A DNA stretch of 64,000 nt from Candidatus Parcubacteria bacterium (GCA_023134715.1 JAGLUP010000006.1:74653-138652); one strand, 5' to 3'. Shown: positions 21,883 to 55,992, counted from the first letter of the stretch. Notes: a model not told the origin generated them from the letters alone. A program made the numbers and translations.

Positions 21883-21898
21883 GAAATTCTACAAAACA

Positions 21899-24637: not shown

Positions 24638-24742
24638 AAATTTTGTATCTTGTATCTTGTATCAAGTATCTTGTATAATTTTTACTATGGCTATATACAA
24701 AATACTAAATACTAAATACTAAATTATATTATATTACTTATT

Positions 24743-30399: not shown

Positions 30400-30499
30400 G
30401 TTCCTTCGCTTTGCTCAGTCAAATTAAAAGTTAAAATTTAAAAATTAAAAATGACAAAACAAAAATATAAAAATAATCAAGCGTTTTATGCTTGATATG

Positions 30500-41936: not shown

Positions 41937-42034
41937 TTTGTTTTTGATAAATAAAAGCAAAATCAAACTATACCTCTATTCGCTTATAAATCGCAATATA
42001 ACTTTCCCGCAATATAACTTTTCCAAACTTCTCC

Positions 42035-42098
42035 CATCAAAATCCTTTCCCATTGAAATCCTTTCCCATTGAAATCCTTTCCCATTGAAATCCTTTGT
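42035..42098. repeat. 16-bp tandem repeat x4
   Basis: (CATTGAAATCCTTTCC) x4 with degenerate first and last units, abutting palindrome P3. Confidence 0.9.
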
Positions 42099-42760: not shown

Positions 42761-42772
42761 CTTAAAATTATT

Positions 42773-42808
42773 ATAACACATATACCACGATCGTTGTATA
42801 TGTGTTAT
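42773..42808. repeat. 36-bp CGATCG-centred palindrome, copy P4
   Basis: ATAACACATATACCACGATCGTTGTATATGTGTTAT, identical to P2. Confidence 0.9.
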
Positions 42809-42816: not shown

Positions 42817-43455
42817 TTAGCTTTTTAATTCTTTTTGATATTCGAAATAAGAATAAGCGATTAAATAAACGCTGATAAAAATTACCGGAACTATAATAAA
42901 AATAAAAGCATAGTCCTCTAAAATAATTCCCAATAAAGCAATTATTCCCGCTATTTTGAATAACCTGCCGCCTAATTTATGTGTCTTATTCCAAACTATT
43001 TCACTGCTTAAAGTCCACGGAGTTTTAATTCCAATAAACCAATTTCTTTTAGCGTTTTCCATTAAAACGCCGCAATAATAAAACAAAGCGCCCAAAGCAG
43101 GCATCATCAGCTGAACCATATTAAATCTAAAACCAAGATTCCAAAAAATAGTTAAAATATAGACATACAAAAGAAAACCAATAATTAAAACAATAAATCC
43201 ATCATAATATTTTCTAAACTTTTCAATATTTTGCTTTAAAGGATCTATCTTAGGAACTAAAAGGAAAAGCAAGAATAAACCAATAGAAAACATTGGCATT
43301 AAAAATAAAGCCCAAAATCTTGGCATATAATCATCTACCTCCCCCCTACTGTTCCAATGCGACGCCATTTTTTCCGGCATCTGAGGATACAAATAAACAC
43401 CAATCAAAAATGATATTAAAATTAGTCCTAATGTAATTACTACGCTTTTCTTCAT
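42817..43455 (-). CDS. SdpI/DUF1648-family membrane protein
   Basis: YLYPQMPEKMASHWNSRGEVDDYMPRFWALFLMP N-terminal signature, plus 5-6 TMs. Confidence 0.65.
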   Translation of the reverse strand: MKKSVVITLGLILISFLIGVYLYPQMPEKMASHWNSRGEVDDYMPRFWALFLMPMFSIGLFLLFLLVPKIDPLKQNIEKFRKYYDGFIVLIIGFLLYVYILTIFWNLGFRFNMVQLMMPALGALFYYCGVLMENAKRNWFIGIKTPWTLSSEIVWNKTHKLGGRLFKIAGIIALLGIILEDYAFIFIIVPVIFISVYLIAYSYFEYQKELKS

Positions 43456-44906
43456 ATTTCTTCAATGTCTTTTAGTTCTTTTTTTATAACTCGTTCAATG
43501 TCAGCTAAATTTTTCAAAAGCTCTTTCTCCGCTTGTTTTTCTTCTTCAGTTAATGCTCGCTGTTGCTTGGCTTTCCTGAAGAGCTTGAGCTGAAGCTCTA
43601 TATCTTTGCAAAGTTCATTATATTCTTTATAAAATTTATTTTTCAAATCTTTGCTTTCTCTTTTAATGGCTCGCTGAGTATTTATAATCCTAAAGAAAAG
43701 ATAAATAAGAATAATCAGCAAAATAAGCAAAAGAATAAGAAGGAGTAAGTTGAACAAGGAATAATCTATGAACCAGGGACCAAGAACAAAACCAGAAAGA
43801 ATAACCTTGACAATATATTCTTTGGAAGGATAACTTATTGCTCCCAGAGCGTCTTTTGCTTTTGCTGAAATTATATATTTGCCTGATTTAAACAAGCCAT
43901 CTTCATTGATTAACCAATCTCCTTTTTCATTGCTTTTTGTTTCCCATTTTTTTATCAACTCTTGAGCTTTCTCAAAGAAAACAATTACTGTGTAACCAGG
44001 CGCAGCTGTTCCCTCTATGTGAAACACTTCTTCTCCTGATATAAAGGTCTCAGGACAGACAGCAACTTCAGGCGCAGGAATTGACTCTACGTTAATCTCT
44101 GAAAAAGCAGTAAAGGCATTTCCGGCATTATCTATTGCCTTAACTTCTAATGTATAAACTCCGGGCTCTTGAAGAGGTATTTTGTAAGGATTTGCTTGCG
44201 GCTCCATTAATGTTAAAATATCTTGCTCCCCGATTTTAATTTCGTAATGGTTTATTCCTGAATCGTCATCTTTTGCTTCAAAATATAAAAGAGGATGAGG
44301 ATTAGCAGGATAACCTTCATTATCCACGATTATCTCAAAAGGCTCAGGCGGTTCGGTATCAATTTTAATTTTTTCAGAAATGTTTATAAAATAACTGCCT
44401 CCTTTGCTTAATTTAAAAATATTAGTTCCTCTCCCGTCGTCGGCTAAAATTATCTCTTTTCCAAAATATAATTTTGCCTGGCCTGAAAATTTTCCCTGAA
44501 AAATTACATTCAACACTTTTCCAGAACTGCCAGTATATCCAGGAGAAGGCAGTCCTCCTCCAAAAATAATTGTGCCTGCTCCATTAGAATAAACCGGCTC
44601 TTTAACCCACATACCAAAAATAGAATTGGTCTTTGAGACCTTTATTACTTTTAATTGAGCAGAAGGATAATAAAGCACAGCTTGAGCCGCGTTAACAGCC
44701 GCTCCATCTGTATTAAGCATTATATTTACAGAAAAACTCTGCCCAATATTATAACTCCCCTGAGATGGAGAAAGACAAAGAGAAGCCCCCTCAGCCCTTA
44801 CGGGCTGCGCTAAACCAACGCCAAACAACAAGAACACTAAACCGACACAAAACCAAAAATTTCGCGTCTGTTTCGTGTATAAGTTTCGTGTTGGTTTAGT
44901 GTTCAT
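43452..44906 (-). CDS. cohesin-like domain surface protein 1 (signal peptide, Ig-like domains, C-terminal TM and cytoplasmic coiled coil)
   Basis: ASLCLSPSQGSYNIGQSFSVNIMLNTDGAAVNAAQAVLYYPSAQLKVIKV... has a cohesin-type beta-sandwich pattern. Also VKAIDNAGN Ig-like, the TM LLLLILLLILLIILIYLFF, and a K/E-rich tail. Confidence 0.55.
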   Translation of the reverse strand: MNTKPTRNLYTKQTRNFWFCVGLVFLLFGVGLAQPVRAEGASLCLSPSQGSYNIGQSFSVNIMLNTDGAAVNAAQAVLYYPSAQLKVIKVSKTNSIFGMWVKEPVYSNGAGTIIFGGGLPSPGYTGSSGKVLNVIFQGKFSGQAKLYFGKEIILADDGRGTNIFKLSKGGSYFINISEKIKIDTEPPEPFEIIVDNEGYPANPHPLLYFEAKDDDSGINHYEIKIGEQDILTLMEPQANPYKIPLQEPGVYTLEVKAIDNAGNAFTAFSEINVESIPAPEVAVCPETFISGEEVFHIEGTAAPGYTVIVFFEKAQELIKKWETKSNEKGDWLINEDGLFKSGKYIISAKAKDALGAISYPSKEYIVKVILSGFVLGPWFIDYSLFNLLLLILLLILLIILIYLFFRIINTQRAIKRESKDLKNKFYKEYNELCKDIELQLKLFRKAKQQRALTEEEKQAEKELLKNLADIERVIKKELKDIEEI

Positions 44907-44930
44907 AGGTTTCGTGTTCGGTCTCGTGTT
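44807..44930 (-). repeat. ACAC(G/T)AAAC motif dyad array at gene junction J1
   Basis: On the coding strand there are six forward copies (AACACGAGACC GAACACGAAACC ..GAACACTAAACC AACACGAAACT..TACACGAAACA GACGCGAAAT), then reverse copies (GTCGGTTTAGTGTTC, GTTGGTTTAGCGC). Confidence 0.85.
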
Positions 44931-46215
44931 TAAATTTTTCTTCCATCTTCTTGAATTGTTCTTTCCTTCTTCTCATTATTTTCTGATGCCTTGTCCATAA
45001 ATAATATCCAATTAAAATAATTATAATTATTAAAATTAAAATTAAAATCCACCAAGGGAAAGAAACTCCTTTAAACTGAATTCCCTTTTTGTTTAAAGAT
45101 ATTCCGTCTGGAAAAATTTGAAGTTTTACTGTCCCCTCTTTCCAATTTCCAGCTTTATCATAAGCCCTTACTACAATTAAATATTTTCCTATTTCTAAAG
45201 AAGGCAATCTATAAGGAGTGGTTATTTCCACAAAAAAACCAGTTGGTTTTTCTTTCTTCTCTTTTGTGATGTCAATATATTTAATCTCATAGTGGTCTAA
45301 TCCAGAAAGCGCGTCAGTGGTTATAAACGAAACTAAGGGTTGTTTTTCGCTTGTTTTTAAAGACGGTTCCACTGTCGGAGTAAAACCAGCCGGAGAGCCA
45401 GCGTCAATTTGAACTAAATAGTGGCTTGTTCCTCCCCAAACATTTTCTTTTTCCACTTTTACATGAAAATACCAAATTCCGTCTTCCACCTCGCCATAAG
45501 AGACCGAAGCGTAATCTCCTTCTGCTCTGTTATCAGGCGTCCCGGTTGGATCTTGGTCAAAACTGTAACTAAAATTAGCTGCTCCCTCCTCTCTTTCCCA
45601 GCCAAAAGTAGGATTATTGTTTTTATACCACCTATTCTTATCAGAATGAGTTAAAGAAAAGACATTAGGCCCTTCAGGCGGAGGAACTACAAGATTATAA
45701 ACTCCCCTTCCCATTGAGGTTAAAATATCTGTTCCATCAGGGTCATTTCTAAGAACCTTGGAAGAATCCAAAAAAACAATTGATGTTTCTCCGGGAGAAA
45801 GAACTCTAAAAGTAACAGTAGAAACTAAACCCGAAGAGGTATTAATCCCTGGAGAAGGAATGCCGCCCATAAAACTCAAAGTTCCTTCAGTGTTGGAATA
45901 AGCAGGTTGAGATATCCAGACAGAAATAAAGGACTTGCCTGCTGTTGGGCTTGCTACTTGAAGTTTTGTTGGATCAAATTTTAAATTTACTTCAACAGCG
46001 TTAATATCCTCTCCATTAGTATTAACAAAAATAGAAACATCAAAAGTACTGCCGATAAAAAAACTCCCTGAAGAAGGAGAAAGATATAAAGAAGCCCCCT
46101 CAGCCCTTACGGGCTGCGCTAAACCGACACTAAACAACAAGAACACTAAACCGACGCCAAACCAAAAGTTTCGCGTCTGTTTCGTGTATAAATTTTGTGT
46201 CTGTTTAGTGTCCAT
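44896..46215 (-). CDS. cohesin-like domain surface protein 2
   Basis: Paralog of 43452..44906 with the same signal peptide and ASLYLSPSSGSFFIGSTFDVSIFVNTNGEDINAVEVNLKFDP. Contains DGIWYFHVKV and VRAYDKAGN modules, a TM and a basic tail. Confidence 0.55.
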   Translation of the reverse strand: MDTKQTQNLYTKQTRNFWFGVGLVFLLFSVGLAQPVRAEGASLYLSPSSGSFFIGSTFDVSIFVNTNGEDINAVEVNLKFDPTKLQVASPTAGKSFISVWISQPAYSNTEGTLSFMGGIPSPGINTSSGLVSTVTFRVLSPGETSIVFLDSSKVLRNDPDGTDILTSMGRGVYNLVVPPPEGPNVFSLTHSDKNRWYKNNNPTFGWEREEGAANFSYSFDQDPTGTPDNRAEGDYASVSYGEVEDGIWYFHVKVEKENVWGGTSHYLVQIDAGSPAGFTPTVEPSLKTSEKQPLVSFITTDALSGLDHYEIKYIDITKEKKEKPTGFFVEITTPYRLPSLEIGKYLIVVRAYDKAGNWKEGTVKLQIFPDGISLNKKGIQFKGVSFPWWILILILIIIIILIGYYLWTRHQKIMRRRKEQFKKMEEKFKHETEHETYEH

Positions 46216-46239
46216 AGGTTTCGTGTTCTGTTTCGTGTT
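46116..46239 (-). repeat. ACAC(G/T)AAAC motif dyad array at junction J2
   Basis: Same layout as J1. It covers the stop of the upstream paralog and the start and signal peptide of the downstream one. Confidence 0.85.
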
Positions 46240-47629
46240 TAAGTTTTTCTTCTAATTCTTGTTTTTCTTTTTTAAATTCCTGCTTTAATTGTTCGGATTG
46301 CATTTCTCTCTGTTCAATTTTTTTAATCTCATCTAACGCTTCCCTTATTTCTTTTATTCCTTTCTTAAATCCAAACCTGCCTCTGGTTGAAAAATAAAAA
46401 ATCAAAGACCCTGTTCCTAAAATTAAAACGGTTATGATAAAATAAATTATCCACCATGGGAAAAGAACGCCTTTTACCTGAATTCCTCTTCCCTCTATAT
46501 AAGAAACAAAAGGAGCAATCAGCTGAAATCGAACTTCTCCTTCCTGCCAGTTCCCTGCTCTGTCATAAGCTCTAATAATAACACTGTATTTCCCTTGTTT
46601 TTTATCCGACATTCTAAGAGGAGAAACAGCTTCTGTAAAAAAGGGCTGCTGAATCGGTATTTGATTAAGGTCTCTTACGCTTACCTCATAATAATCTATC
46701 CCTGAATGCGAATCTTGGGTCTCAAAATAAATAAAACGAGAATAAGTTTCTGCTTGTGGAACAAATTTTTGAGGAGGAGTTTTATCAATTTTTACTGAAA
46801 AATGACTGGTCTTTCCCCAAATTCCCTGCTTTTTAGCTCTCAGATGAAAATACCAAATTCCATCAGCAACATCGGTATAAGATTTAAAACTAATTTCTCC
46901 TTCGGAAACAGTATCTGGAACTTCTTTTGGATTTTGAGAAAAACTAAAACTAAAATTAGAAAGCCACTCGGCTTTTTCCCAAAAAAAACTGGGATTAGAA
47001 TCACTATACCAAAGGTCAGAGTCAGGATGAGTTAACGACATTATTTTTGGTCCCTCGGGATGAGGAATTAAAATTTCGTAAACACCGTTGATATTTGTGG
47101 TAAAAATCGGCGTGCCTTTTCCGTCAGACAAAAGCAACTTTGAAGAATCTAAAATTTCAATCTTAGCTTTTCCAGACGACTTTGCCCTAAAAGTAATCGT
47201 AGAGACCAAACCTGAAGAAGTCATAATTCCTTCAGGCATTCCCCCTTTAAAAGAAATAGTTCCTCCGCTATTGGAATAACTCGGAGGAACTATCCACTCT
47301 GAAATAAAAGATTTTGTTGCTGTGGGAGATGTTACCTGTAAAATCTCCGGAGGAAATTTTAAATCAAGCTCTACTGCGTTGATTTTCTGATTCTTGGTAT
47401 CAACATAAACAGAAACAGAAAACGTGCTCCCTACAAAAAAAGTTCCCTGCGATGGAGCGAGATAAAGCGAAGCCCCTGCCGCCTTTACGGACTGCGCTAA
47501 ACCGACGCTAAACAAAAACACTAAACCGACACTAAACCAAAAGTTTCGCGTCTGTTTCGTGTATAAGTTTTGTGTCTGTTTCGTGTCCATAGGTTTCGTG
47601 TATAAGTTTCGTGTCTGTTTCGTGTTCAT
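46205..47629 (-). CDS. cohesin-like domain surface protein 3
   Basis: Paralog with a duplicated N-terminal TKQTRN unit, ASLYLAPSQGTFFVGSTFSVSVYVDTKNQKINAVELDLKFPP, IRAYDRAGN, a TM and a coiled-coil tail. Confidence 0.55.
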   Translation of the reverse strand: MNTKQTRNLYTKPMDTKQTQNLYTKQTRNFWFSVGLVFLFSVGLAQSVKAAGASLYLAPSQGTFFVGSTFSVSVYVDTKNQKINAVELDLKFPPEILQVTSPTATKSFISEWIVPPSYSNSGGTISFKGGMPEGIMTSSGLVSTITFRAKSSGKAKIEILDSSKLLLSDGKGTPIFTTNINGVYEILIPHPEGPKIMSLTHPDSDLWYSDSNPSFFWEKAEWLSNFSFSFSQNPKEVPDTVSEGEISFKSYTDVADGIWYFHLRAKKQGIWGKTSHFSVKIDKTPPQKFVPQAETYSRFIYFETQDSHSGIDYYEVSVRDLNQIPIQQPFFTEAVSPLRMSDKKQGKYSVIIRAYDRAGNWQEGEVRFQLIAPFVSYIEGRGIQVKGVLFPWWIIYFIITVLILGTGSLIFYFSTRGRFGFKKGIKEIREALDEIKKIEQREMQSEQLKQEFKKEKQELEEKLKHETEHETYGH

Positions 47630-47670
47630 AAGTTTTATGCCAGTTTAACGTTCTGCTGTCGGTTTCGTGA
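47495..47670 (-). repeat. ACAC(G/T)AAAC motif dyad array at junction J3 (largest, about 10 forward copies)
   Basis: Plus strand reads ...AGTTTCGCGTCTGTTTCGTGTATAAGTTTTGTGTCTGTTTCGTGTCCATAGGTTTCGTGTATAAGTTTCGTGTCTGTTTCGTGTTCAT... Confidence 0.85.
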
Positions 47671-48810
47671 TTTAATCACCTGCCAAATTATTGCAAGTCC
47701 GATTAAAATCAACAAAAGGATAGCCATATCTTTCCATGTCGCTTTATATGGTGGTGTAATTTCCGCTATTCTTTTATTTCCCGCTTTATCAATCGTTTTA
47801 ACTAATATCTTGCTTCTCAAGCTCTGGTCTTCCAGTAAATAAGGACTCTCCCCTACTTTCCAACCTTTTTTGGCGATTTTTAGCGTCCATATTCGCGGTA
47901 TTTCGCGTATCTCATAATGCTCAATTCCCGAGGTCTTGTCATCGGCCGCGAAAACCAAATAATTCTTTCCTTCAATTTCAGTAATTTTTGGCTCAAATTC
48001 CTCTGGAGCCGCAGTATCAATCATTGCCCGAAAACTCACTTTCGGTCCCCACTCTCTTTCGCGACTTTCACGTAAAAGAAAGTAATAAATTCCATCGCCT
48101 TGTTCTTTAAAATCATACTCCATCGCTCCCATCCAAAATGCCACTCCCTCTTTGGGCTCTGGCTCATCTGAAATTTCATCTGGTTCAGCTTGAGGATCTC
48201 GGCTTAAAATCCAACTATATTCTGCTCCTTCAACTAAATCCCAATAAAGAGAAAGTATATTATTGTTATACCATTTATTTTGGTCTGGATGCGATTCAGA
48301 GGAAATCCCGGGCAAGCCCTCTGGCTGTTTTAAAATTTCATATTCTCCTTGTAAAAAATTTGATTGGGCTAACGAACCCTCTCCGTCATTTAATAAAATC
48401 TTAGAATTATTTTCAAAAGCAATTTTTGCTTTGCCAAGAGCTTCTGCTGAAAAAATAATCTTAGCCAATAAGCCGTCTCCCTTGAATCCATTCGGCGTCC
48501 CGCCGGCAAAAGAAATTTTTCCATTTTTAAATTCCGGCTTTTTTACAAAAAATTTTAAAATTGAATCTCCTTTGCTGAAATCAATCGCTTCTAATAAATT
48601 TGAAGGAAATGTTAAATACGCCTCAACCGCGTTTATTTCTTCTCCCTCAGTGTCTATTCTAAGCTCGGTTAAAAAACTATCTCCTTGATAAATTGTCTGC
48701 GATTGCGGCGCCAAATATAAACTCGCCGCCTGGCCTCCAAAAGGCCACACTAAACAGACACTAAACAAAACACTAAACAGAATCGAAACCTTTTTATTTT
48801 TTTGAACCAT
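47635..48810 (-). CDS. cohesin-like domain surface protein 4
   Basis: ASLYLAPQSQTIYQGDSFLTELRIDTEGEEINAVEAYLTFPS, DGIYYFLLRE, TIDKAGN and a TM. Its N-terminus (MVQKNKK) is encoded inside the 3' end of the GxxExxY gene. Confidence 0.55.
   Translation of the reverse strand: MVQKNKKVSILFSVLFSVCLVWPFGGQAASLYLAPQSQTIYQGDSFLTELRIDTEGEEINAVEAYLTFPSNLLEAIDFSKGDSILKFFVKKPEFKNGKISFAGGTPNGFKGDGLLAKIIFSAEALGKAKIAFENNSKILLNDGEGSLAQSNFLQGEYEILKQPEGLPGISSESHPDQNKWYNNNILSLYWDLVEGAEYSWILSRDPQAEPDEISDEPEPKEGVAFWMGAMEYDFKEQGDGIYYFLLRESREREWGPKVSFRAMIDTAAPEEFEPKITEIEGKNYLVFAADDKTSGIEHYEIREIPRIWTLKIAKKGWKVGESPYLLEDQSLRSKILVKTIDKAGNKRIAEITPPYKATWKDMAILLLILIGLAIIWQVIKSRNRQQNVKLA
48747..48790 (-). repeat. reverse-orientation motif half-array (signal-peptide core of protein 4)
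   Basis: Coding strand CTGTTTAGTGTTTTGTTTAGTGTCTGTTTAGTGTGG encodes LFSVLFSVCLVW. Confidence 0.8.
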
Positions 48811-49180
48811 AGATTCTTCTAATTATTTGCACACCATCTGGCATGCCGAAATTTATAAGATAACCTAATTTATAACCAGAAACTTTCAAATAATACCAAA
48901 ATTGTTTAATATCTTCCTGTATTAAATTAGGTTTAACTTTTAATTCAATAAAAATAATATTATTTACTACTAAATCTGGAATATAAGTACCTACCTTTTT
49001 ATTATTATATAAAATATCAATTCTTTTTTCTTTCTCTACAGCCAAGCTCTTGTTTTTCAAACCTAAATAAAATGAGTTTTGATAAACCTTTTCTTTGTGC
49101 CTATTTCTAAATTGTTTATAAATATCAAAAGCCACTCCTTGAATAATATATGATTCTTGTTTATATAATAATTCTGCCAT
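48794..49180 (-). CDS. GxxExxY-family (PD-(D/E)XK fold) protein
   Basis: GTYIPDLVVNNIIFIELKV (D...ExK), GYLINFG, and a size of ~128 aa. Confidence 0.65.
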   Translation of the reverse strand: MAELLYKQESYIIQGVAFDIYKQFRNRHKEKVYQNSFYLGLKNKSLAVEKEKRIDILYNNKKVGTYIPDLVVNNIIFIELKVKPNLIQEDIKQFWYYLKVSGYKLGYLINFGMPDGVQIIRRIYGSKK

Positions 49181-49225
49181 AAGTTTAGAGTCAGTTTCGT
49201 GTAGAGTTTAGTGTCGGTTTAGTGC
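49181..49225 (-). repeat. forward-orientation motif half-array immediately upstream of the GxxExxY ORF
   Basis: Minus strand reads GCACTAAACCGACACTAAACTCTACACGAAACTGACTCTAAACTT, followed by ATG. Confidence 0.8.
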
Positions 49226-49252
49226 AGGATAATTTTTAACTTATGTTAAAAA

Positions 49253-50203
49253 TTATCCTGTCCATTGATACATCATTATTGAAAAATCAATAATGCTTAC
49301 ATTTCCGTCAAAATTAATATCAGCGCATTTATTTGACGGCCTGGCTTGCTCCCAAAAGTAAAGCAGAATGCTGAAATCTATTATATTCACGCTTCCATCA
49401 AAATTTAAATCCGCTCCCTGACAGACTAAGGCGCCTGGCGACACGACCAAAAAAGAAAGGGTTTGAGAAAATGGGCTCTGCTCGCCCTCGCCGAAAAGAG
49501 CTTTGGCCCGGGCTTTATGCTCTGCTTCTTCTAAAAAACCAGTATTTAATTTATATGACCATTTTCCATTTTCGCTGGCGCCAGTTGTCTTTACAGTTTC
49601 CTTTGAGGAAATAAAAATATTAACCTGGCTCTCTGGAAATGCCTGACCAAGAATATCAACAATGTTTCCTTTTTCCACATGGGTCGGAGTAAGGGCTATC
49701 GTAGGTGAAATGAAAATCCCTGAGATAGTAGTGGTCATCTTAGCTAAAACGCTCACTGTAAAACTTAAAGTAACCGATTTTCTTGCATCAGAATCTTCAG
49801 CGAAAATTCCAAAAGTGCAAACCCCGCCCGACAGCCCTGTTAATTCTTTTTCAAACAGACCTGATTTTTCAGCAAAAAAAGTGGCTGCAACTTTCCCGTT
49901 TTTTAAAATAGTTAAAAAAGCATTAGGATAAGCTCTGCCTTTTAAAATAACCTTTCCCGGCGATACTATTATTGTTCCTCCGCTGCCGCCGCCAGAAGGC
50001 GGAGGCTCGGGTTCTTCGCCAAATTCACGCACAGTAGCTGTTGTAGAAATATCTACCGTTGAATCACCCTGACAATAATTTAAATTTACAGCTAAAAAAA
50101 ATGTTAAAGCAAAAATTATTCCGAAAAATAAAACTACGAATCTTGCATTTCTTTTCGTGTTCTGTTTCGTGTCTGTTTCGTGTCTGTTTCGTGTCTTCTC
50201 CAT
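49253..50203 (-). CDS. dockerin-domain secreted protein
   Basis: The C-terminus carries two canonical dockerin Ca-loop repeats, ADLNFDGSVNIIDFSILLYFW and ADINFDGNVSIIDFSIMMYQW. It has an N-terminal signal anchor. ATG at 50201-50203. Confidence 0.75.
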   Translation of the reverse strand: MEKTRNRHETDTKQNTKRNARFVVLFFGIIFALTFFLAVNLNYCQGDSTVDISTTATVREFGEEPEPPPSGGGSGGTIIVSPGKVILKGRAYPNAFLTILKNGKVAATFFAEKSGLFEKELTGLSGGVCTFGIFAEDSDARKSVTLSFTVSVLAKMTTTISGIFISPTIALTPTHVEKGNIVDILGQAFPESQVNIFISSKETVKTTGASENGKWSYKLNTGFLEEAEHKARAKALFGEGEQSPFSQTLSFLVVSPGALVCQGADLNFDGSVNIIDFSILLYFWEQARPSNKCADINFDGNVSIIDFSIMMYQWTG

Positions 50204-50301
50204 TGTTATATTATAACAAAAAATCACCCAATTTAAAACATTGAATGATTTTATATTTTTCGTGTCGGTTTAGTGTTTTTGTTTTGTGTCGGTTTAGCGC
50301 G
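50151..50301 (-). repeat. forward motif arrays in and upstream of the dockerin gene
   Basis: Three perfect 11-mers (CTGTTTCGTGT x3, 50162-50194), plus TTTTTCGTGTCGGTTTAGTGTTTTTGTTTTGTGTCGGTTTAGCGCG (50256-50301). Confidence 0.85.
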
Positions 50302-51217
50302 ACTCTCCTCTAATTAAAATCCTGACTGCTGCTGCCCATCTTCTTCGAGTTAAGATAAGCAATATTATAAATATTAATAATCCTAAAACGACTTTCCATG
50401 GAAACGCCCAAAAAGTAATAACTTTTGACTCTAAGGGAATATTGCCTGCCCCATAAGTTCCACTCAAGGTAGCAATATATTTTCCTCCCCAAAGCCATTT
50501 TTGATTCCAAGAGGCCTCAAACTTTCTTACAGAACTCGGCAGAACACTTTTTTGAACCAAAGGAATTTCCGCTACCTTTTTGCCTTGCAAGTCAGTAATA
50601 CTTATAGAAGCGCTTGCCCTTGAATGAATTGTTCCTAAATTTTCAAATTTGATTTCAAAAGGAATCGGTCCGTATTCAAAATAATTTCGCGGAGCGCTAA
50701 ACTCTTTTACTATTAAATTCTCTTTCATTTCTCCGGGAACTGTTAATAAAACCAAAGCGCCAACTCTTGGAATTATTGAAGCTCCGGTTATTCCGGGTCC
50801 AGTAACTCCTGTAGAACCAGCTATAACTGTGCCGTAATGCCCGCCCGGCTCTGCGTTCTCTGGAATTCTTATAGTAAATTTTATTTTTTTCTCTTCTTTT
50901 GGCGTTAAAATAAATTTTTCGTGCTCGCATTTTGTCCATCTGGCAAGAGAATAACTTTCGGTTTCCGCGGGTTCAACAATCACATGTCCTGACTCTCCGG
51001 TAGGAACAATATCTTCTATTGTCATTTTCACTGAAATTGTATGTTCTGAACTTGGATTACCTACTTTAATATAATTTTCAATCACATCTCCCGGATTTCC
51101 TGTTATTTCAAAAGTTAAAGGCGAAAGCCCAATACCAGGCGCGTCTGCAAAAACTGCCTGACTCAAAATCATTCCTCCAATAGCCAAAATTAGAAAAAGA
51201 AAGTTTTTTCTTTTCAT
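50294..51217 (-). CDS. DUF916-like cell-surface protein with C-terminal TM anchor (CscA-like)
   Basis: Signal peptide, SPLTFEITGNPGDVIENYIKVGN, FILTPKEEKKIKFTIRIPENAEPGGHYGTVIA, and C-terminal VVLGLLIFIILLILTRRR. Confidence 0.5.
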   Translation of the reverse strand: MKRKNFLFLILAIGGMILSQAVFADAPGIGLSPLTFEITGNPGDVIENYIKVGNPSSEHTISVKMTIEDIVPTGESGHVIVEPAETESYSLARWTKCEHEKFILTPKEEKKIKFTIRIPENAEPGGHYGTVIAGSTGVTGPGITGASIIPRVGALVLLTVPGEMKENLIVKEFSAPRNYFEYGPIPFEIKFENLGTIHSRASASISITDLQGKKVAEIPLVQKSVLPSSVRKFEASWNQKWLWGGKYIATLSGTYGAGNIPLESKVITFWAFPWKVVLGLLIFIILLILTRRRWAAAVRILIRGESR

Positions 51218-51258
51218 TAGAAATTTTTCCTTTACCCTTTAATTAATAAACGCGGGAT

Positions 51259-51894
51259 TTAAGGAGCTGCGGCAACCATGGTTAAAGTAATAGTATCAGT
51301 ATAGCTTCCATTCTCCTTATTCGCGACACAAGACGCTTTAATTACCATAGTAATTTCATGACCAGCTACTTCGGTTCGAGTAGTTTTGCTCGCAAAGGTC
51401 TGACCTCCGGTTTTTATTTCCCCTACTGTAGTATCTCCCCAGTGATCATAATTAGAGCCAATAGTTGACGATGCAGAAGTGGCTTCAGCGCCATAAATAT
51501 CAGTGCCTGCCGCAACAGTGCCAGTGGCGCTAACCGAACCAATTGTGCTCGTTGAACCCCAATCCAACCCATCATTAGCGCCCGTTAGGGTAATTTTATA
51601 TCCGTCAGCAGAGTTGGTTTTAGCAGTTAGGATAATACTGCTGCTAGTGGCAACAGATGTAACACCCGCTGTGCTAACCAAATCAGGACTAAGAGTAGTT
51701 GAAGTCGTATTTGACGTAAGCGTCATCCACTCCTGAACCGTAGCTGTAATCTCCACAGAGGTAGCGACCGCTTCCACGGTATCAATATTAGAAGGCGCAA
51801 AACTATACATTCCCATTACCCCGGTTATTGTTAAAACCAATCCAATCGCAATAGCTAAAACTATATCCTTATTTTGATTTATTATTTTTGCCAT
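51259..51894 (-). CDS. WxL-like small surface protein (CscB-like)
   Basis: Signal anchor, T/S/A-rich beta-rich body, GYKITLTG, and C-terminal GSYTDTITLTMVAAAP (compare the WxL C-terminal motif). This is a weak, pattern-level call. Confidence 0.35.
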   Translation of the reverse strand: MAKIINQNKDIVLAIAIGLVLTITGVMGMYSFAPSNIDTVEAVATSVEITATVQEWMTLTSNTTSTTLSPDLVSTAGVTSVATSSSIILTAKTNSADGYKITLTGANDGLDWGSTSTIGSVSATGTVAAGTDIYGAEATSASSTIGSNYDHWGDTTVGEIKTGGQTFASKTTRTEVAGHEITMVIKASCVANKENGSYTDTITLTMVAAAP

Positions 51895-52030
51895 TTTTTA
51901 TTTTAGAAATTTTTAAATACTTAATTGTCCGACCTTTATTATAATAATATAGTTATTAACAAATAATTTATATTCTTTTATAATAACACATCCCCCCCCA
52001 CAAAAAAACCAACCTGTGGAAAACTCAAAC

Positions 52031-53089
52031 CTATGTTCCATGTTTCATACCTGCCAGCGCTCTTAAAGAAGCGATAATTCTTTTTCTGGCCAAGAACAAA
52101 CCTATCCCTATGAATAATAAAATAAAACTGATTTTCCAAGGTAATGCCCAAAAAATTATTGCTTGATTTATGTTTAAAGCGCTTTTCTCTTCTCCAAGGT
52201 CTAAAACCACTTTATATTTCCCGATTGGAGTATTTTGAGTTAGAAAATCAAAAGGCGAAAATCCAACTGGGAATCTTCTTGTCTTCCCCGGCAAAATTGT
52301 TGTTCTTCTTACCTCGGTCTCCCCTACTTTTCTCCCTAAAAAATCATAAACTAAAATTTTTCCTGAAATTTTATGATGAAAAATGTCATTGTTTTTAATC
52401 CTTAAAATAAAATCAGACGGAGTTTTTTCAACAATGCTTATATCCGCGGCCACTGCTTCTGAAATTATATTCCCTGCAAACGCCAGGAGCTTCTCCAAAT
52501 TTTGCAGCCGCTGCTCTTTTGGAATGCTAAATTCAACAATTTCAACCTGTTTCTCTGTTTCTACCGGCTCCAAGGAAAGCGTCTTCACTGAAAACAAAAA
52601 CAAAACTCCAACAACCGGAATAGACCTGGGCTGTCCCTCTTTAAAATAAAAAGAAGGCAATTGCGGTTCAAAAAGCATCACGGCATAATGGCCGCCCGGT
52701 TCCGCGTTCCCCGGAATCTTAATTGAAAAATCAATATATCTCTTTTCCTTTGGTTCTAAAATAAAATCTGAATTTTCTATCTCAAACCATTTGCGGGAAG
52801 CAAAAGAAATGTCTTGCGAAGATTCGTCAAACAGCATCTCTCCCGTCTCATCAGCCGCTGTAAAATCAGTTAATCTTACGGCCACAGGCATTGCGGCATC
52901 GCTTAAATTTCCAAGTTTTATCTTTTTCAGAAATGTCTCGCCCGGAAAAACATCCAATTCAAAAACTTGAGGCGAGACCGACATGCCCAAACTATCCACC
53001 TGAGCATCCGCCGCATAAAAAGGCAGCGCTAAACAGACACAAGACAAAGTGCTAAACAGACACAAAACTTTTTTTAATAATTTCTTCAT
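52031..53089 (-). CDS. DUF916-like cell-surface protein with C-terminal TM anchor (paralog)
   Basis: SPQVFELDVFPGETFLKKIKLGN, FILEPKEKRYIDFSIKIPGNAEPGGHYAVMLFE, and TM ISFILLFIGIGLFLARKR. Its ATG at 53087-53089 overlaps the ATPase TGA. Confidence 0.5.
   Translation of the reverse strand: MKKLLKKVLCLFSTLSCVCLALPFYAADAQVDSLGMSVSPQVFELDVFPGETFLKKIKLGNLSDAAMPVAVRLTDFTAADETGEMLFDESSQDISFASRKWFEIENSDFILEPKEKRYIDFSIKIPGNAEPGGHYAVMLFEPQLPSFYFKEGQPRSIPVVGVLFLFSVKTLSLEPVETEKQVEIVEFSIPKEQRLQNLEKLLAFAGNIISEAVAADISIVEKTPSDFILRIKNNDIFHHKISGKILVYDFLGRKVGETEVRRTTILPGKTRRFPVGFSPFDFLTQNTPIGKYKVVLDLGEEKSALNINQAIIFWALPWKISFILLFIGIGLFLARKRIIASLRALAGMKHGT
53036..53077 (-). repeat. reverse-orientation motif half-array (signal peptide of the 52031 gene)
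   Basis: Coding strand GTTTTGTGTCTGTTTAGCACTTTGTCTTGTGTCTGTTTAGCGC encodes VLCLFSTLSCVCLAL. Confidence 0.8.
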
Positions 53090-54276
53090 AATCGCCAACA
53101 ATAAAATTTCTCCAAAAGTCCATCATAAGTTAAAAACTTTAATTTTATATCAGGATAAAAACTTTTAAATTGTTTATACTTGCCCTCCTTTGCTTCGGCC
53201 AAGTTAAACTTAATTTCAAAGGCCTGATTGCCAATAACAAAATCAACCTCTTTTTTGTCTTGCGTGCGCCAAAACTTAATTTTATTGATATCTTTTGTTG
53301 TTCTTAAAAACTCTCTGAAAACAATATTTTCTAAATACGCCCCTTTATCTGTTCGTTTATTTATTGGATTAAAATTGTCTAATAATAAATTTCTCAGACC
53401 TAAATCGTAAAAGTATGCTTTGGGCATTTTAGTCAACTCTTTTCTTAAATTCTTATAATAGGGCTTTATCAGCGCAATCTGATATGACTTCTTCATTATA
53501 TACAAATATTCTTCTACTGTCTTATGGGCTATATTGAGAGTATTGGCTAATTCTTGCGAATTTAACAATTCGCCTGTTTGGCCGGCTATGATTTTCAAAA
53601 GAGAAAAATATTTGTCAACATTTTTTATACCGGCATCGCTAATATCTTTTTTAATGTAAGAAGAAGCGATATCTTCTAATACTATTCTTTGAGAATCATC
53701 GCTGCCCGCCAAAACAACCTTGGGATAACCGCCGCAGATTAGATACTTGTTCCATAGCTTTATTAATTTCTCTTTATAATAAACCGACAGTTTTTTGTTT
53801 TTTCGCTCAAGCAACTCATTCTCTTGGTTAAAGACCAAAAATTCGTCAAAATTCAAAGGATAAACTTCAAATAAAAACTTTCTACCTACTAAGCTGTCTT
53901 TAAATTTCTTGTCAATATAAAAAGCAGATGAACCAGAAGCGATAATTTTAATTTGCTTTCTCTTTTCGTCATAAAGCAGTTTTAAAAAATTAGTAGGATC
54001 GTTAAGATATTGGATTTCGTCAATAAAAACATACTGTTTTGATTTGCTGTCCGGAATCAGCTCAAAAATATTATAAGGATGCTTGTTTAATAATTCTAAA
54101 TAAGTGGGATTTTCTAAATTAAAGTAATAACAAGCGCGACCCTTTTTTTCTAAAAAGTTCTTTAACATTATTAAAAGACAAGTTTTACCGGTTTGCCTGG
54201 CGCCGGTTAGAATAATAAACTCATCTTTTAACAACGTTTTTTTTATTGCTGAAAAAATTTCTCTTGGATATAACAT
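53086..54276 (-). CDS. AAA-type ATPase with C-terminal DUF4143-like D...ExK domain
   Basis: Walker A GARQTGKTCLL, Walker B VFIDEIQ, and C-terminal KKEVDFVIGNQAFEIKF. Confidence 0.7.
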   Translation of the reverse strand: MLYPREIFSAIKKTLLKDEFIILTGARQTGKTCLLIMLKNFLEKKGRACYYFNLENPTYLELLNKHPYNIFELIPDSKSKQYVFIDEIQYLNDPTNFLKLLYDEKRKQIKIIASGSSAFYIDKKFKDSLVGRKFLFEVYPLNFDEFLVFNQENELLERKNKKLSVYYKEKLIKLWNKYLICGGYPKVVLAGSDDSQRIVLEDIASSYIKKDISDAGIKNVDKYFSLLKIIAGQTGELLNSQELANTLNIAHKTVEEYLYIMKKSYQIALIKPYYKNLRKELTKMPKAYFYDLGLRNLLLDNFNPINKRTDKGAYLENIVFREFLRTTKDINKIKFWRTQDKKEVDFVIGNQAFEIKFNLAEAKEGKYKQFKSFYPDIKLKFLTYDGLLEKFYCWRL

Positions 54277-54310
54277 AATAATTTAGATAATTTATAAGCT
54301 ATCAATACTA

Positions 54311-54339
54311 ATAATATCAGATATTATAATACTTGTCAA
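54311..54339 (-). promoter_or_regulatory. promoter of ATPase gene 1
   Basis: Minus strand reads TTGACA (54334-54339), 17 nt, then TATTAT (54311-54316). Confidence 0.55.
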
Positions 54340-54609
54340 GTAGTATTGAATCTTAAAATTAAGAGAATGGACTACCCTAATTATATGTCATTTAGGGGAA
54401 TGATATATTAATTCCCACGGATAAACAAATTTAATCGCCCTTTTCGCTTATATAATGGTCTGATATACCAGTCAAGTTTTAACAAAATGTTGTCTGGTAT
54501 ACTGGTCAAGTTATAATCGCCAACAATAAAATTTCTCTATTTGTCAAGTAGTATTAAACCTAAATAAATATTATAATTATCTATTCAAGCAGAGCTATTT
54601 TGAAAGGCG

Positions 54610-55854
54610 CTATGTAAAATATAACGGAAGTTGATTTATTTCCAAATTTTTGATTTTTACATTTGCGCTCTCTAATTTTTTATTAAATAAAATCGCTTTT
54701 TTGTTTTTAAACTTATTAGAAAACAAGATTAAATTCTTAAAATCTTTTTCGGAAAACTGATTTCTATATTTTACTTCAATCGGAATAATATTATTATTTC
54801 TAACATTAACAAAATCAACTTCGTGTTTATACGCGTCCCTCCAGAAAAATTTATAATCTTTAATGGAAATGACAAAATTTTCAGCCAGCCTGCCAATTTC
54901 CATAAAATCTGAAACCGCCCAGCTGAATGAAGGAGAAGCTAAATAAAATCTTTTAAGTTTTTTTTCGGAGGTTAGCAGATTGCGGGAAAAATTATAAATC
55001 TTTTTAACTAAAAAAGATTCTTCCAAATAAAAAAGGTAATTGCTTAAAGTCTTGTTGGAAATGCCAATTTCGCGCGACAAATCCCGGTAATTGATGAAAA
55101 TGCCCGGATTCTGTCCGATAATTTTTACTAATCTCCATAAAATTTCCGGATTGTCTATCGGGAAAATTTGCGGAATATCTTCAAAAACTATTTTTTTAAT
55201 AATTGAAATAAAGTATTCTTTTCTTTCTTTCGTCCCCATGTCAACACTTTCCACAAATTGGCTTTGTAAAAATATTTCAAATTCTTTTTCAATTTCCGCC
55301 CTGAAAACCAATGGTTTTTTTAATAAATCGCTCTTGTTTTTAAAGTATAGATACTCTTTAAAATTTAAAGGAGGGAGAAAAAAGCTCTTTATTCTCCCGG
55401 CAAGACTTTCTTGGGTTTTCTTCTTGACAAAAAGGGATGTTGACCCTGAAATAAAAATTTTAAGGTTTGGATAGAGGTCATAATAAATTTTTATTTTTGA
55501 TTGAAAGTTTTTCAGCTTTTGGATTTCGTCCAAAAACAGAAAAACTTTTTTCTTGCGAAAATCAACCTGCGTTTGCTTCTCAAAATTTTGCAGCAATTCC
55601 TCTAAATCTACTTTTTCTTCATCAAAAGTAAAATACCAGATAGAAAAAGCGTCTGTTCTGTTTTTCAATAAATAATTTATAATTTGGAAAAAAAGCGTGG
55701 TTTTACCCGTTCTCCTTAATCCCACCAATTCTATAATCTGTTTTTTATCAATATATTCCAAAAGGTCGTTAAAAAAATCTCTTTTTTTTAAAAAAGCATA
55801 TTTAAATCCTTTTTCCCAGTGCCTATTATATTTTAATAAATTTAAGTTTTTCAC
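54610..55854 (-). CDS. AAA-type ATPase with C-terminal DUF4143-like D...ExK domain (second copy)
   Basis: Walker A GLRRTGKTTLF, Walker B LFLDEIQ, and C-terminal HEVDFVNVRNNNIIPIEVKY. Confidence 0.7.
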   Translation of the reverse strand: MKNLNLLKYNRHWEKGFKYAFLKKRDFFNDLLEYIDKKQIIELVGLRRTGKTTLFFQIINYLLKNRTDAFSIWYFTFDEEKVDLEELLQNFEKQTQVDFRKKKVFLFLDEIQKLKNFQSKIKIYYDLYPNLKIFISGSTSLFVKKKTQESLAGRIKSFFLPPLNFKEYLYFKNKSDLLKKPLVFRAEIEKEFEIFLQSQFVESVDMGTKERKEYFISIIKKIVFEDIPQIFPIDNPEILWRLVKIIGQNPGIFINYRDLSREIGISNKTLSNYLFYLEESFLVKKIYNFSRNLLTSEKKLKRFYLASPSFSWAVSDFMEIGRLAENFVISIKDYKFFWRDAYKHEVDFVNVRNNNIIPIEVKYRNQFSEKDFKNLILFSNKFKNKKAILFNKKLESANVKIKNLEINQLPLYFT

Positions 55855-55894
55855 TTCTAATGAAATTATATTTTATTGGAAAGTATTTACTTGT

Positions 55895-55922
55895 ATTATA
55901 TAATATCTAAACATCTTGTCAA
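55895..55922 (-). promoter_or_regulatory. promoter of ATPase gene 2
   Basis: Minus strand reads TTGACA (55917-55922), 16 nt, then TATAAT (55895-55900). Confidence 0.6.
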
Positions 55923-55948
55923 TAGGTAAAAAGCCTTTCCTTGAATAA

Positions 55949-55992
55949 TATTAGTGTCTGTTTCGTATCCAAGTTTTGTGTCAGTTTCGCGT
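55949..55992 (-). repeat. forward-orientation motif half-array just after the giant ORF stop
   Basis: Minus strand reads ACGCGAAACTGACACAAAACTTGGATACGAAACAGACACTAATA. Confidence 0.8.

Follow-up and report, generated by a model that had tools for sequence, protein, structure and literature searches.

The 64-kb window analysed here, the whole 64,000-nucleotide stretch of Candidatus Parcubacteria DNA, carries a surface-protein locus in which tandem cohesin genes (43452-44906, 44896-46215, 46205-47629 and the cohesin-like 47635-48810) are accompanied by genes for a GxxExxY/PDDEXK_3 protein (48794-49180), a dockerin protein, a WxLIP-like protein (52031-53101) and an ATPase (54610-55854). The window holds 27 exact copies of the 9-nt word ACAC[GT]AAAC on its two strands, every copy within 44834-50276, where dinucleotide shuffles averaged 0.54 copies and never exceeded 3. 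With one mismatch allowed, and an array defined as at least two units 9-17 nt apart, 51 units fall into 13 arrays (0.24 in shuffles), so the motif arrays of the original prediction are real. Nearly all units lie in 44.8-56.0 kb, strongly clustered in this one surface-protein locus, and the predicted confinement holds for the exact word, but a degenerate three-unit forward array (17593-17624, minus strand) fills the 37-nt L22-S3 gene spacer outside it. Other short tandem repeats are plentiful in the window. A DNA uptake sequence, which needs a high and roughly even density, was considered and rejected, with no exact copy in the 53 kb outside 44.8-56 kb.

The expected period of about 11 bp was recovered: 21 of the 38 gaps between units measure 11 nt, which is the mode, twelve measure 12-13 nt and five 15-16 nt. 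The order is fixed, forward units lying 5' of reverse-complement units without exception. As the forward arm uses mostly the G variant (ACACGAAAC) and the reverse arm the A variant (GTTTAGTGT), the arms are imperfect complements with a regular central mismatch. The peptides originally listed for C-termini, N-termini, the dockerin gene and signal-peptide cores (HETEHET, TKQTRN, TRNRHETDTKQNTKRN, GLVFLLFSVGL and LFSVLFSVCLV) are all present in ORF translations, but their reading in three frames is no separate signal; it is the arithmetic of a unit whose 11 nt are not divisible by 3, and whatever the entry frame, a strict tandem of the 11-mer translates into the 11 residues TRNRHETDTKQ. A forward array has a mean hydropathy of -2.9 and zero stops, a reverse array +2.6 and one stop per 33 nt, which fits the confinement of 13- and 16-nt spacings to coding reverse arrays. 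Eight of ten arrays lie wholly or mostly within ORFs.

Three full-length elements lie at the cohesin-gene junctions, each with, on the coding (minus) strand, five to nine forward units and then four reverse-complement ones, the dyad arrangement that had been predicted. J1 (44807-44929), at the junction of 44896-46215 and 43452-44906, contains six units in forward and four in reverse orientation. Its sequence supplies the upstream gene with the C-terminal tail KHETEHETYEH, includes the overlapping start/stop ATGAACACTAA (44896-44906), and encodes the n-region NTKPTRNLYTKQTRN and h-region FWFCVGLVFLLFGVGLA of the downstream protein. J2 (46116-46239) joins 46205-47629 to 44896-46215. J3 (47494-47670), between 47635-48810 and 46205-47629, carries extra forward units, its degenerate units reach into the tail of the upstream gene, and it spans a break in an independent assembly of this population. 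Directly 3' of the last reverse unit of J1 stands a GC hairpin, CAGCCC-GTAA-GGGCTG (44792-44807, minus strand; second copy at 46101-46116), which encodes the signal-peptidase region AQPVRA. No known signal-peptide family matched.

The remaining arrays, all on the minus strand, are half-elements. A reverse-arm half element at 48745-48790 (three exact units and one degenerate) gives the cohesin-like gene 47635-48810 its signal-peptide h-region, VSILFSVLFSVCLVW, and direct sequence comparison shows it to be complementary at 18 of 19 positions, across the GxxExxY ORF, to a forward (T-variant) half element at 49183-49225. The latter is non-coding, as had been claimed, has four units spaced 11, 12 and 11 nt, and lies directly 5' of the ATG of the GxxExxY gene. 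The orthologous GxxExxY gene is flanked by an equivalent array arrangement in four relatives (L042, L046, L079 and L085), and the idea that this nuclease-fold gene between half-elements is a mobile cassette was rejected; it is a fixed syntenic gene. In the dockerin gene, which likely starts at the ATG at 50203, a forward array (50152-50194) of three perfect 11-mers and one further unit encodes the n-region EKTRNRHETDTKQNTKRN (Tandem Repeats Finder: 50153-50196, period 11, 3.9 copies, 96% matches). A four-unit forward half element (50257-50300) separates the 3' end of ORF 50294-51217 from a promoter-like site of the dockerin gene (50237-50210; TTTAAA-16-TATAAT, TG upstream); this tract, 50256-50301, had also been called non-coding, but it overlaps the final codons of that ORF. 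At 53026-53068, degenerate reverse-arm units supply the WxLIP-like protein with its signal-peptide h-region, VLCLFSTLSCVCLALPF. The last forward half element (55949-55992, three to four units), correctly called non-coding, falls just past the stop of a 2622-aa gene and directly upstream of a sigma-70-type promoter-like site (55922-55895, match 12/12) of the ATPase gene.

A palindromic element shared with 23S rRNA genes and spacers

We built a covariance model from eight copies only, taken from other Parcubacteria-like contigs, where they lie in ribosomal-protein spacers or as inserts in 23S rRNA (helix 45 and a site in domain I). The insert is a Y-shaped palindrome of ~103 nt (103 model positions) in which two forward units (xCRCGAAAC), a small GC hairpin and two more forward units are followed by four reverse units (GTTTAGYGT), two on either side of a TTT spacer. 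Single-stranded, it adopts a Y fold whose arms, segments of 4-5 bp split by regular 1x1 mismatches, pair the two unit arrays end to end, with 96% of arm cells paired; in each of the four unit pairs, AU/GC covariation at the R/Y position was stronger than in any of 500 shuffles. This rRNA- and spacer-only model found J3 (47494-47626, minus strand; 70.3 bits, E 1.4e-16; seven forward and four reverse units), J2 (61 bits, E 4.7e-14) and J1 (44807-44903, minus strand; 51.5 bits, E 2e-11, model positions 1-103) at full length, the next-best match elsewhere in the window having an E of about 0.1. The J2 start codon occupies the site of the small central hairpin (B) of the canonical element, and GC hairpins similar to those at the junctions also occur 3' of the element in rRNA and spacer copies.

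At E <=0.001 the model gave 48 matches, with both strands listed per copy, which reduce to 25 places on the better-scoring strand in 19 sources. Matches to LSU rRNA enclose copies in four contigs (L016, L026, L051 and L068); mapping of the insertion sites in L026 places them at model positions 225-232 and within the helix-45 loop of 23S rRNA, the latter a classical intervening-sequence site. The rRNA copies have fold z-scores of -5 to -6 and in all cases the opposite orientation to the mRNA copies, and the RNA mismatches therefore differ between the two (U-C/U-U in rRNA, G-A/A-A in mRNA). No rRNA gene occurs in the window. In related genomes, copies are read in-frame in ADK, in a TP_methylase that we take to be RsmI-like, in a Radical_SAM/UPF0004 (MiaB-family) enzyme and in cohesin loops. 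In S17 the units form a 30-aa tail that ends at the TAG of the first reverse unit. The corresponding sites in the window, in adk and at the S17/L14 junction, are empty. The WxLIP-like orthologue in L046 also has a reverse-unit signal peptide (L046:6144-6250, E 4e-8). The 9-nt word is conserved among genomes whose proteins are only 60-70% identical, and identical units in identical order recur in 23S rRNA genes, spacers and unrelated ORFs, which upholds the view that the recurring thing is a nucleic-acid word and not a peptide.

No Rfam family matches the element and we found no literature on such elements in Patescibacteria. In copies in rRNA, spacers and ORFs no consistent target-site duplication was seen (empty and filled S17/L14 sites show AAAC/AAC at most), neither a mobilising enzyme nor recent identical dispersed copies were found, and no parent insertion sequence or transposase sharing the element ends was seen in the window.

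Turnover among orthologues and homogenisation of junctions

Relatives differ in which junctions carry the element. Among 120 cohesin-2 orthologues the mature part, from GASLYLSP onwards, is 59-85% conserved between non-identical relatives and the N-termini are unrelated; by eye about 14 of the 120 N-termini look element-derived, most orthologous cohesin genes having ordinary signal peptides. In L076, which is syntenic with 83% amino-acid identity, J2 is without the element, the units at J3 are all reverse ones and the element at J1 is rearranged; unit number and order differ from those in the window.

Within the genome the junctions resemble each other far more than their surroundings do. J1 and J2 are 90% identical, and each is less similar to its own L076 orthologue (78% for J1, 55% for J2); in 60-nt windows of J1 against J2 the junctions are 77-92% identical and the gene bodies about 50%, across the paralogues the corresponding values are 70-90% and ~50%, and cohesin-1 and cohesin-2 share 27% amino-acid identity. 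The original prediction had argued against one recent segmental duplication from the copies outside the paralogues; that explanation does fail, for the different reason that similarity is much higher in the junctions than in the flanking genes. A Logan assembly of the same population is 100% identical over 7644 nt including four arrays, the junctions of L022, L023 and L032 are identical to one another, and neither set shows length variants or out-of-frame alleles, all ORFs being intact.

RNA-level, recombination and regulatory readings

The element could be a functional RNA module whose Y hairpin is recognised by RNase III or some other factor. In 23S rRNA it would be cut out as an intervening sequence, and in the polycistronic cohesin mRNA it would set processing, stability or strict translational coupling at each junction. 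The related copies in the helix-45 loop and at the domain-I site, with their extended stems, resemble 23S intervening sequences, although the copies in the window lie in protein-coding genes and spacers and not in rRNA. Short non-intron inserts at known 23S sites have been described in CPR bacteria, with RNase III cleavage proposed (PMC11270868); that paper reports neither an 11-nt unit structure nor relatives outside rRNA. The arm of ~20-22 bp corresponds, by our reckoning, to two turns of A-form RNA. The coding copies retain 25-27 of 28 arm pairs, and their non-Watson-Crick pairs lean to the transcribed strand (G-U to A-C 24:8 in sense copies and 1:4 in rRNA copies), a bias that hints at selection on the RNA. 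Together with the conserved 9-mer, the kept pairing could mean that the word or the pairing itself is selected, for example through a binding protein or an RNase, rather than tolerated.

The 16-of-17 pairing foreseen at J1 is present in its minimum-free-energy fold, which has a z-score of -4.0 and buries the AUG. However, the proposal that the mRNA dyad gates translation finds no general support and is inconsistent across junctions: z-scores weaken to -2.9 at J2 and, at J3, to -0.2, which is no better than shuffles; all three are weaker than in the rRNA copies, the three structures are unlike each other, and start-codon accessibility relative to 58 genes of the window is low only at J1 (0.28), being ordinary at J2 (0.47, mid-range) and J3 (0.60, towards the accessible end). 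The opposite orientations and differing mismatches of rRNA and mRNA copies, the impossibility of a hairpin in half-copies, and the ruin that cutting within a signal-peptide coding region would bring to the message further weaken an RNA module, which we regard as unlikely. Some Correia/ERIC/BIME-type elements do bring promoters or RNase III sites, and RNase III cuts Correia elements in mRNAs (PMC10969869). The Parcubacteria element shares with these the short inverted repeats at gene boundaries, co-transcription and the ability to fold in mRNA, and with MITEs the terminal inverted repeats, in that its forward and reverse unit arrays pair, but we found no target-site duplication or partner transposase, most copies are translated, and its arms are 9-mer arrays instead of a single terminal inverted repeat. 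BIMEs have a modular make-up, which the unit arrays and small GC hairpins here recall.

Less probable still is that the arrays serve as recombination substrates or simple-sequence contingency tracts, with unequal crossing-over or gene conversion among J1-J3 adding, deleting and swapping cohesin cassettes, and gain or loss of an 11-nt unit switching a gene off. Three direct repeats of ~120 nt stand 1.3-1.4 kb apart exactly at gene boundaries, the paralogous junctions evolve in concert, L076 differs from the window in the number and order of units, and the 5' coding region of the dockerin gene contains three perfect 11-mers. Opa-type CTCTT repeats of Neisseria likewise lie in the signal-peptide coding regions of surface-protein genes and have a unit that is not a multiple of 3. 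Yet all six genes here are in frame, the independent assembly is 100% identical over 7.6 kb and the junctions of three relatives do not differ, so that the length polymorphism and out-of-frame alleles of an opa-like system were not seen; the units are mostly imperfect and unevenly spaced, a poor substrate for slippage, and the copies in rRNA and housekeeping genes are left unexplained.

A further reading makes the units binding sites, on which a winged-helix response regulator, as originally predicted, or else a nucleoid or transposase-type protein, would sit on one helix face at 11-bp steps and regulate the locus. The modal period and direct repeats are those of PhoB/OmpR operators, the word is conserved between diverged genomes, and two four-unit arrays (50257-50300 and 55949-55992) stand immediately 5' of promoter-like sites, about 50-105 nt away as reckoned from coordinates. 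Only these two have the position expected of an activator site; the rest are in ORFs or at ORF starts, most copies belong to coding sequence or rRNA genes and have inverted arrays joined to them, full-length homologues reside in 23S rRNA genes and, in-frame, in housekeeping genes, and J1-J3 match the model made from rRNA and spacer copies only. The orthologous J2 lacks the element though its gene is conserved, and the scanned ORFs of the locus include no response regulator, the sole regulator-type neighbour being a PaaX/Cas2-like ORF (42206-42781). As a general explanation a response-regulator operator is not supported, the element is not a locus-specific operator, and any role of the units as binding sites seems very doubtful. 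Ordinary paralogy with replication slippage, giving low-complexity 5' ends shared by duplicated genes in an AT-rich genome, draws on the tandem paralogy of the cohesin genes and a window rich in short tandem repeats but is hardly credible, being already contradicted by junctions much more alike than the gene bodies, units in non-paralogous genes and spacers, and matching architecture in rRNA genes of other genomes.

A dispersed repeat and export-signal coding

Our preferred explanation, to which we give a probability of roughly 60%, is that the arrays represent whole and half copies of a palindromic repeat dispersed in Parcubacteria (CPR), here mainly co-opted as coding material for export signals. 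The data document a repeat family, its architecture and contexts, its presence and absence among close relatives and the homogenisation of its junction copies within a genome. The three full-length copies would be translated across the overlapping stop/start junctions of the tandem cohesin genes: the forward arm, hydrophilic and free of stops in all frames, would form the C-terminal tail of one protein and, past the junction, the basic n-region of the next, whose start codon would take the central-hairpin position; the reverse arm, its hydrophobic complement, would supply the h-region of a putative signal peptide, and the GC hairpin 3' of the element a putative signal-peptidase site. Half-copies would provide an n-region only (dockerin gene) or an h-region only (cohesin-4 and the WxLIP-like gene), or would lie in spacers. 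Copies presumably spread by a recombination or transposition route, as their presence or absence among relatives suggests, and gene conversion probably keeps the junction copies alike. The copies of this locus, as predicted export signals, would act mainly as coding material rather than as a regulatory site. Several observations weigh against this reading: no mobilising enzyme, target-site duplication or recent identical dispersed copy was found, the copies in the window crowd into one surface-protein locus, the 9-nt word and the arm pairing are kept, wobble pairs lean towards the transcribed strand, and two half-copies stand just 5' of strong promoter-like sites.

The nearest known kinds appear to be rRNA intervening sequences and Rickettsia palindromic elements (RPEs), both of which the repeat resembles. 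RPEs are palindromic repeats of ~100-150 bp, dispersed in a reduced genome, that lie in-frame in unrelated ORFs and in non-coding DNA and are translated in tolerant loops (PMC10969869). The Parcubacteria element is likewise a palindrome (103 model positions) dispersed in a reduced genome and translated in-frame, as additional peptide stretches in tolerant loops, in unrelated ORFs (ADK, TP_methylase, Radical_SAM/UPF0004, the S17 tail and cohesin loops). It differs in its host, a Parcubacteria MAG, in its 11-nt subunits, central mismatches and Y fold, and in its additional 23S intervening-sequence sites, so that by analogy it may be said to work like RPEs without being a member. We know of no description of RPE arms as signal-peptide n- and h-regions. 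PARCELs are coding repeats with dyad symmetry in membrane-targeted proteins that are thought to move between genes (PMC2996958), all features that find a likeness here. They are, however, 25-residue (75-nt) amphipathic domain repeats within ORFs and are not reported in rRNA, whereas the present element is ~100 nt long and its arms give a hydrophilic and then a hydrophobic peptide, which PARCELs do not.

More tentatively, the Y-shaped element that also occupies 23S intervening-sequence sites may be a mobile, portable signal-peptide cassette in Parcubacteria. As its arms are reverse complements, one hydrophilic and basic and the other hydrophobic, one insertion could give both an n- and an h-region. 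If so, a single insertion or conversion event at a 5' end would create or swap the Sec n- and h-regions of a protein while adding a tail to the gene upstream, the conserved 9-mer and fixed mismatches would be recognition features for a mobilising or processing protein, and the cassette would drive fast N-terminal turnover among orthologous surface proteins.

Repeat arrays of the surface-protein locus

The window has a GC content of 35% and nearly all of its genes are on the minus strand, including a surface-protein locus with four cohesin-type genes in tandem (43452-44906, 44896-46215, 46205-47629 and 47635-48810), a GxxExxY/PDDEXK_3 gene (48794-49180), a dockerin gene (49253-50227, start probably the ATG at 50203), two WxL-interacting-protein-like genes, two AAA_14/DUF4143 ATPase genes and the end of a gene for a 2622-aa protein. 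The original prediction, that this locus carries many ACAC(G/T)AAAC-like units in arrays of ~11-nt period, was borne out: the exact word occurs 27 times against 0.54 expected, always inside 44834-50276, and with up to one mismatch there are 51 units in 13 arrays (0.24 in shuffles) with a modal spacing of 11 nt. The proposed dyad arrangement was likewise found, as the coding strand at every cohesin junction carries several forward units and then four reverse-complement units, although the complement is inexact, with a central G in forward units and a central A in reverse units. All peptides quoted in the prediction occur in the translations; that the word is read in all three frames is true but adds nothing beyond the repeat itself, because an 11-nt tandem shifts frame with each unit and yields the same 11-residue TRNRHETDTKQ from any frame. 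Strict confinement to the surface locus did not hold: a degenerate three-unit array (17593-17624, minus strand; units ACACCAAAC, AAGCTAAAC and ACACTAAAT) fills the 37-nt L22-S3 spacer and looks like a decayed half-element within the ribosomal-protein operon. Within the surface locus, the arrays outside the three cohesin-gene junctions (J1, 44807-44929; J2, 46116-46239; J3, 47494-47670) are also half-elements, with only the forward arm or only the reverse arm.

On its upstream side the GxxExxY gene has a forward array and on its downstream side a reverse array, a layout which resembles ORF-bearing intervening sequences; these bracketing arrays are nearly complementary and could pair across the ORF. 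We rejected it as an autonomous or mobilising form, as it sits in the same position in every genome examined, with the dockerin gene (in contig L079 a 369-aa gene without annotation) on one side and the cohesin-like gene on the other, and this constant gene order marks it as a fixed operon member, not a mobile cassette. It lies upstream of the cohesin-like gene, overlapping its start, is 70-90% identical over many contigs (L042, L046, L079 and L085 were compared) and is more conserved than its surface-protein neighbours. Adjoining the cohesin cluster, a 191-aa ORF (42206-42781, minus strand) scores 32.6 bits with the Cas2 model (cut-off 24.5) and matches PaaX weakly over residues 117-174; the orthologue in contig L076 is in syntenic position under the annotation PaaX_M, and the ORF possibly encodes a locus regulator or nuclease-fold protein. 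A near-perfect 16-nt tandem repeat (TCCCATTGAAATCCTT x4.1, 42032-42096) lies downstream of this ORF.

Other repeats are also present in the window. Three copies of a few-hundred-bp module are interleaved with small ORFs at 20640-22480, with the common pieces AAAAAAATCGGCAGAGCAACTTTTT..TAAGTTGAATACC...TATAGTCCGCCCGAAAG and TTGAAACAATTATATTATA(C/T)CAAATTATGG, and palindromic tandem repeats of GGAGCTAAGCTCC (x3) occur at 21839-21878 and again at 5153-5194. Many intergenic spacers contain short tandem repeats of 7-nt period (8846-8973, 12873-12938, 22417-22471, 24643-24724 and 30421-30474; for example TGATTAT x7.7, TTATCAA x7.9, and TTGTATC x4.9 followed by CTAAATA x4.9), which recall cyanobacterial heptamer repeats. 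A G8 homopolymer on the minus strand (51992-51999), between a WxLIP-like gene (52031-53101) and a 211-aa gene (51259-51894), is possibly prone to slippage.

Copies in other genomes and their common architecture

Scanning public genome and metagenome contigs with the two-unit word ACACGAAACAGACRCGAAA gave, besides chance matches in GC-rich DNA, multi-unit arrays at about 25 loci of low GC; about half of the single-19-mer, high-GC genome and metagenome matches are chance. At these loci forward units precede reverse units wherever both orientations co-occur, and the contexts are mutually unrelated: 23S rRNA genes (L016, L026, L051, L068), the S17-L14 spacer (L018, L033, L066), the spacer after the S4 gene (L062), in-frame positions in adenylate kinase (L008), in a TP_methylase-family gene which we take to be RsmI-like (L029, L031, L039) and in a Radical_SAM/UPF0004 (MiaB-family) gene (L057), and both the interior loops (L028, L030, L042) and the N-termini (L015, L022, L023, L032, L046, L052) of cohesin-type proteins. 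In L026 the rRNA inserts occupy LSU model positions 225-232 and the helix-45 loop. The 23S rRNA gene of L016 has two clear sites and matches the element model more weakly at a third (11857-11958; 31 bits, E 3.5e-5, 53% GC). Three matches came from a scan of viral contigs and none was accepted as a member, one being probably the same DNA as the Bacillus contig L009 of the genome scan, the other two a short 3-unit coding stretch found too in L048, L049 and L065. By eye, the unit has a weak likeness to the parS half-site and to type I restriction sites.

Set in one orientation, the rRNA and spacer copies show a common architecture of ~103 nt: after two forward units come a short GC hairpin and two further forward units, then a pair of reverse units, TTT and a second pair of reverse units. 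The single strands fold neatly into a Y of 4-5-bp segments split by 1x1 mismatches (z-scores -5 to -6), with 96% of arm cells paired, and the R/Y position covaries in 4/4 unit pairs (ACAC:GTGT at one rRNA site, ACGC:GCGT at helix 45), a score above all 500 shuffles. A covariance model whose only sources were eight rRNA and spacer copies, and to which neither the window nor any cohesin gene contributed, aligned in full with the coding strand at J3 (E 1.4e-16), J2 (E 4.7e-14) and J1 (E 2e-11); no other place in the 64 kb scored better than an E-value of about 0.1. Because a model of rRNA and spacer copies alone matches them in this way, J1-J3 are, on covariance evidence, genuine copies from the family to which the rRNA inserts belong. 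In these alignments the cohesin start codon occupies the position of the canonical central hairpin, and the upstream gene has its last codons in the first two forward units. Every rRNA copy is antisense relative to every coding copy; we do not take orientation to transcription as a clean discriminator, as independent insertion sites are few and the copy in the spacer after S4 has the rRNA-type orientation. The whole window had no Rfam match at gathering thresholds, and 44.7-50.4 kb had none at E-values up to 1.

Among known systems, Rickettsia palindromic elements were the closest in working, being palindromic repeats which insert in-frame in unrelated genes and are translated (PMC10969869), but they differ from the present element in host and in the 11-nt subunit architecture. 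Intervening sequences have rRNA sites and stem formation in common with it, whereas the copies in the window are outside rRNA; for CPR 23S rRNA, short inserts which are not introns have been reported at known intervening-sequence sites and proposed as RNase III substrates (PMC11270868), in a paper which makes no mention of the 11-nt unit structure or of relatives outside rRNA. Correia/ERIC-type elements also lie at gene boundaries and perhaps have promoter or RNase effects in common with it. Of the hallmarks of MITEs, neither a target-site duplication nor a transposase was found. Given these differences, the element is not a demonstrable member of any of these classes, and our searches of the accessible literature gave nothing on such elements in Patescibacteria.

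Turnover of the junction copies and regulatory readings

A syntenic contig of Parcubacteria bacterium DG_74_2 (L076), in which the orthologue of the second cohesin gene (cohesin-2) is 83% identical, has no element at J2, only three reverse units at J3, and an element with a different unit order at J1. In the window J1 and J2 are 90% identical, yet identity to the own orthologue in L076 is 78% for J1 and 55% for J2, and identity between the flanking genes is only 27% for protein and about 50% for DNA. Junctions more alike than their flanking genes or own orthologues are what gene conversion or recent re-insertion leaves behind, not what a single old duplication does. Empty sites are also seen, as the window adk is without the ~20-residue segment of L008, and its S17 and L14 genes overlap by ATGA, with no spacer, where ~125 nt are inserted in L033.

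The prediction also offered, as an alternative, that the dyad can fold in the mRNA and would gate translation initiation. Modelled folds suggest that this may apply at J1, where bases around the start codon are unpaired with a mean probability of 0.28 (only three of 58 genes are lower), but not across the element, as the values at J2 and J3 (0.47 and 0.60) argue against a common occlusion of the start codon; fold z-scores are -4.0, -2.9 and -0.2 for J1, J2 and J3, and the three predicted structures are not alike. That a DNA- or RNA-binding protein recognises the units is a minority possibility, which we retain because quite diverged genomes have kept the word and the arms of coding copies keep 25-27 of 28 pairs. 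Non-Watson-Crick pairs lean to G-U on the transcribed strand in sense copies (24 vs. 8; 1 vs. 4 in rRNA copies), a weak hint of RNA-level selection, which a transcription-linked mutation bias could also produce. The more specific proposal of response-regulator binding fits the 11-nt period and the two half-elements which lie just upstream of promoter-like sites (one a 12/12 match), but leaves the full-length copies in rRNA genes and in the middle of housekeeping ORFs unexplained. A perfect TTGACA-16-TATAAT is present at 55895-55922 (minus strand) upstream of an ATPase gene, and the -10 box of the dockerin gene ends 7 nt before its likely ATG (50203-50237, minus strand), a position at which the mRNA would be leaderless or nearly so. 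Phase variation through unit slippage finds no support, as no ORF is interrupted and an independent assembly of the same population, a Logan contig of run SRR13892601 found by the GxxExxY protein, matches 7.6 kb of the window without any variant and simply ends inside J3.

Proposed coding use of the arms as export signals

When translated, the forward arm is strongly hydrophilic (mean hydropathy -2.9) and stop-free in all frames, and the reverse arm is strongly hydrophobic (+2.6), so that a forward-then-reverse dyad at the 5' end of a gene would encode a basic n-region and then an h-region. The GC hairpin after the last reverse unit (44792-44807 and 46101-46116) encodes AQPVRA, a predicted AxA-type cleavage region. 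The A-variant of the reverse unit contains TAG in one frame, a frame which coding copies avoid through reverse-unit spacings of 11, then 13 or 16, then 11 nt; in L033 and L066 this TAG ends a tail of 30 residues which S17 owes to the element.

The best database match to cohesin-2 is an identical protein annotated as Candidatus Parcubacteria bacterium. Among its 120 best orthologues, the non-identical relatives have 59-85% identity in the mature part, from GASLYLSP onward; the N-termini are unrelated, mostly ordinary MKK...-type signals, and by eye only ~14 of the 120 look element-derived. It is not the peptide itself that is conserved. Searches of Pfam and NCBIfam gave no match between the element-derived N-termini and a known (extended) signal-peptide family. 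A second recurrent N-terminus, M.NPLN.TNIKLINTK.LLVVLSF.LV..., is found in about a tenth of the orthologues (P0007, P0010, P0017, P0021, P0025, P0027, P0044, P0061, P0090, P0109, P0112 and P0119) and may come from decayed element units (cf. NTKLNTKPINTKQTRN in L076) or from another repeat word.

The aspect we find most interesting, put forward from sequence logic and the comparative data, is that complementary arms would serve as the two halves of an export signal. In practical terms, the element breaks assemblies (J3), misleads gene callers on start sites (L076) and lengthens CPR housekeeping proteins and rRNA. If correct, our reading would tie together three subjects mostly treated apart, namely short non-intron inserts of CPR rRNA, 'selfish' palindromes that sit in-frame in ORFs and how export signals originate; it would offer a route from a non-coding repeat to a signal peptide through sense/antisense hydropathy complementarity, and it would explain the fast turnover of the N-termini of surface proteins beside conserved mature domains.
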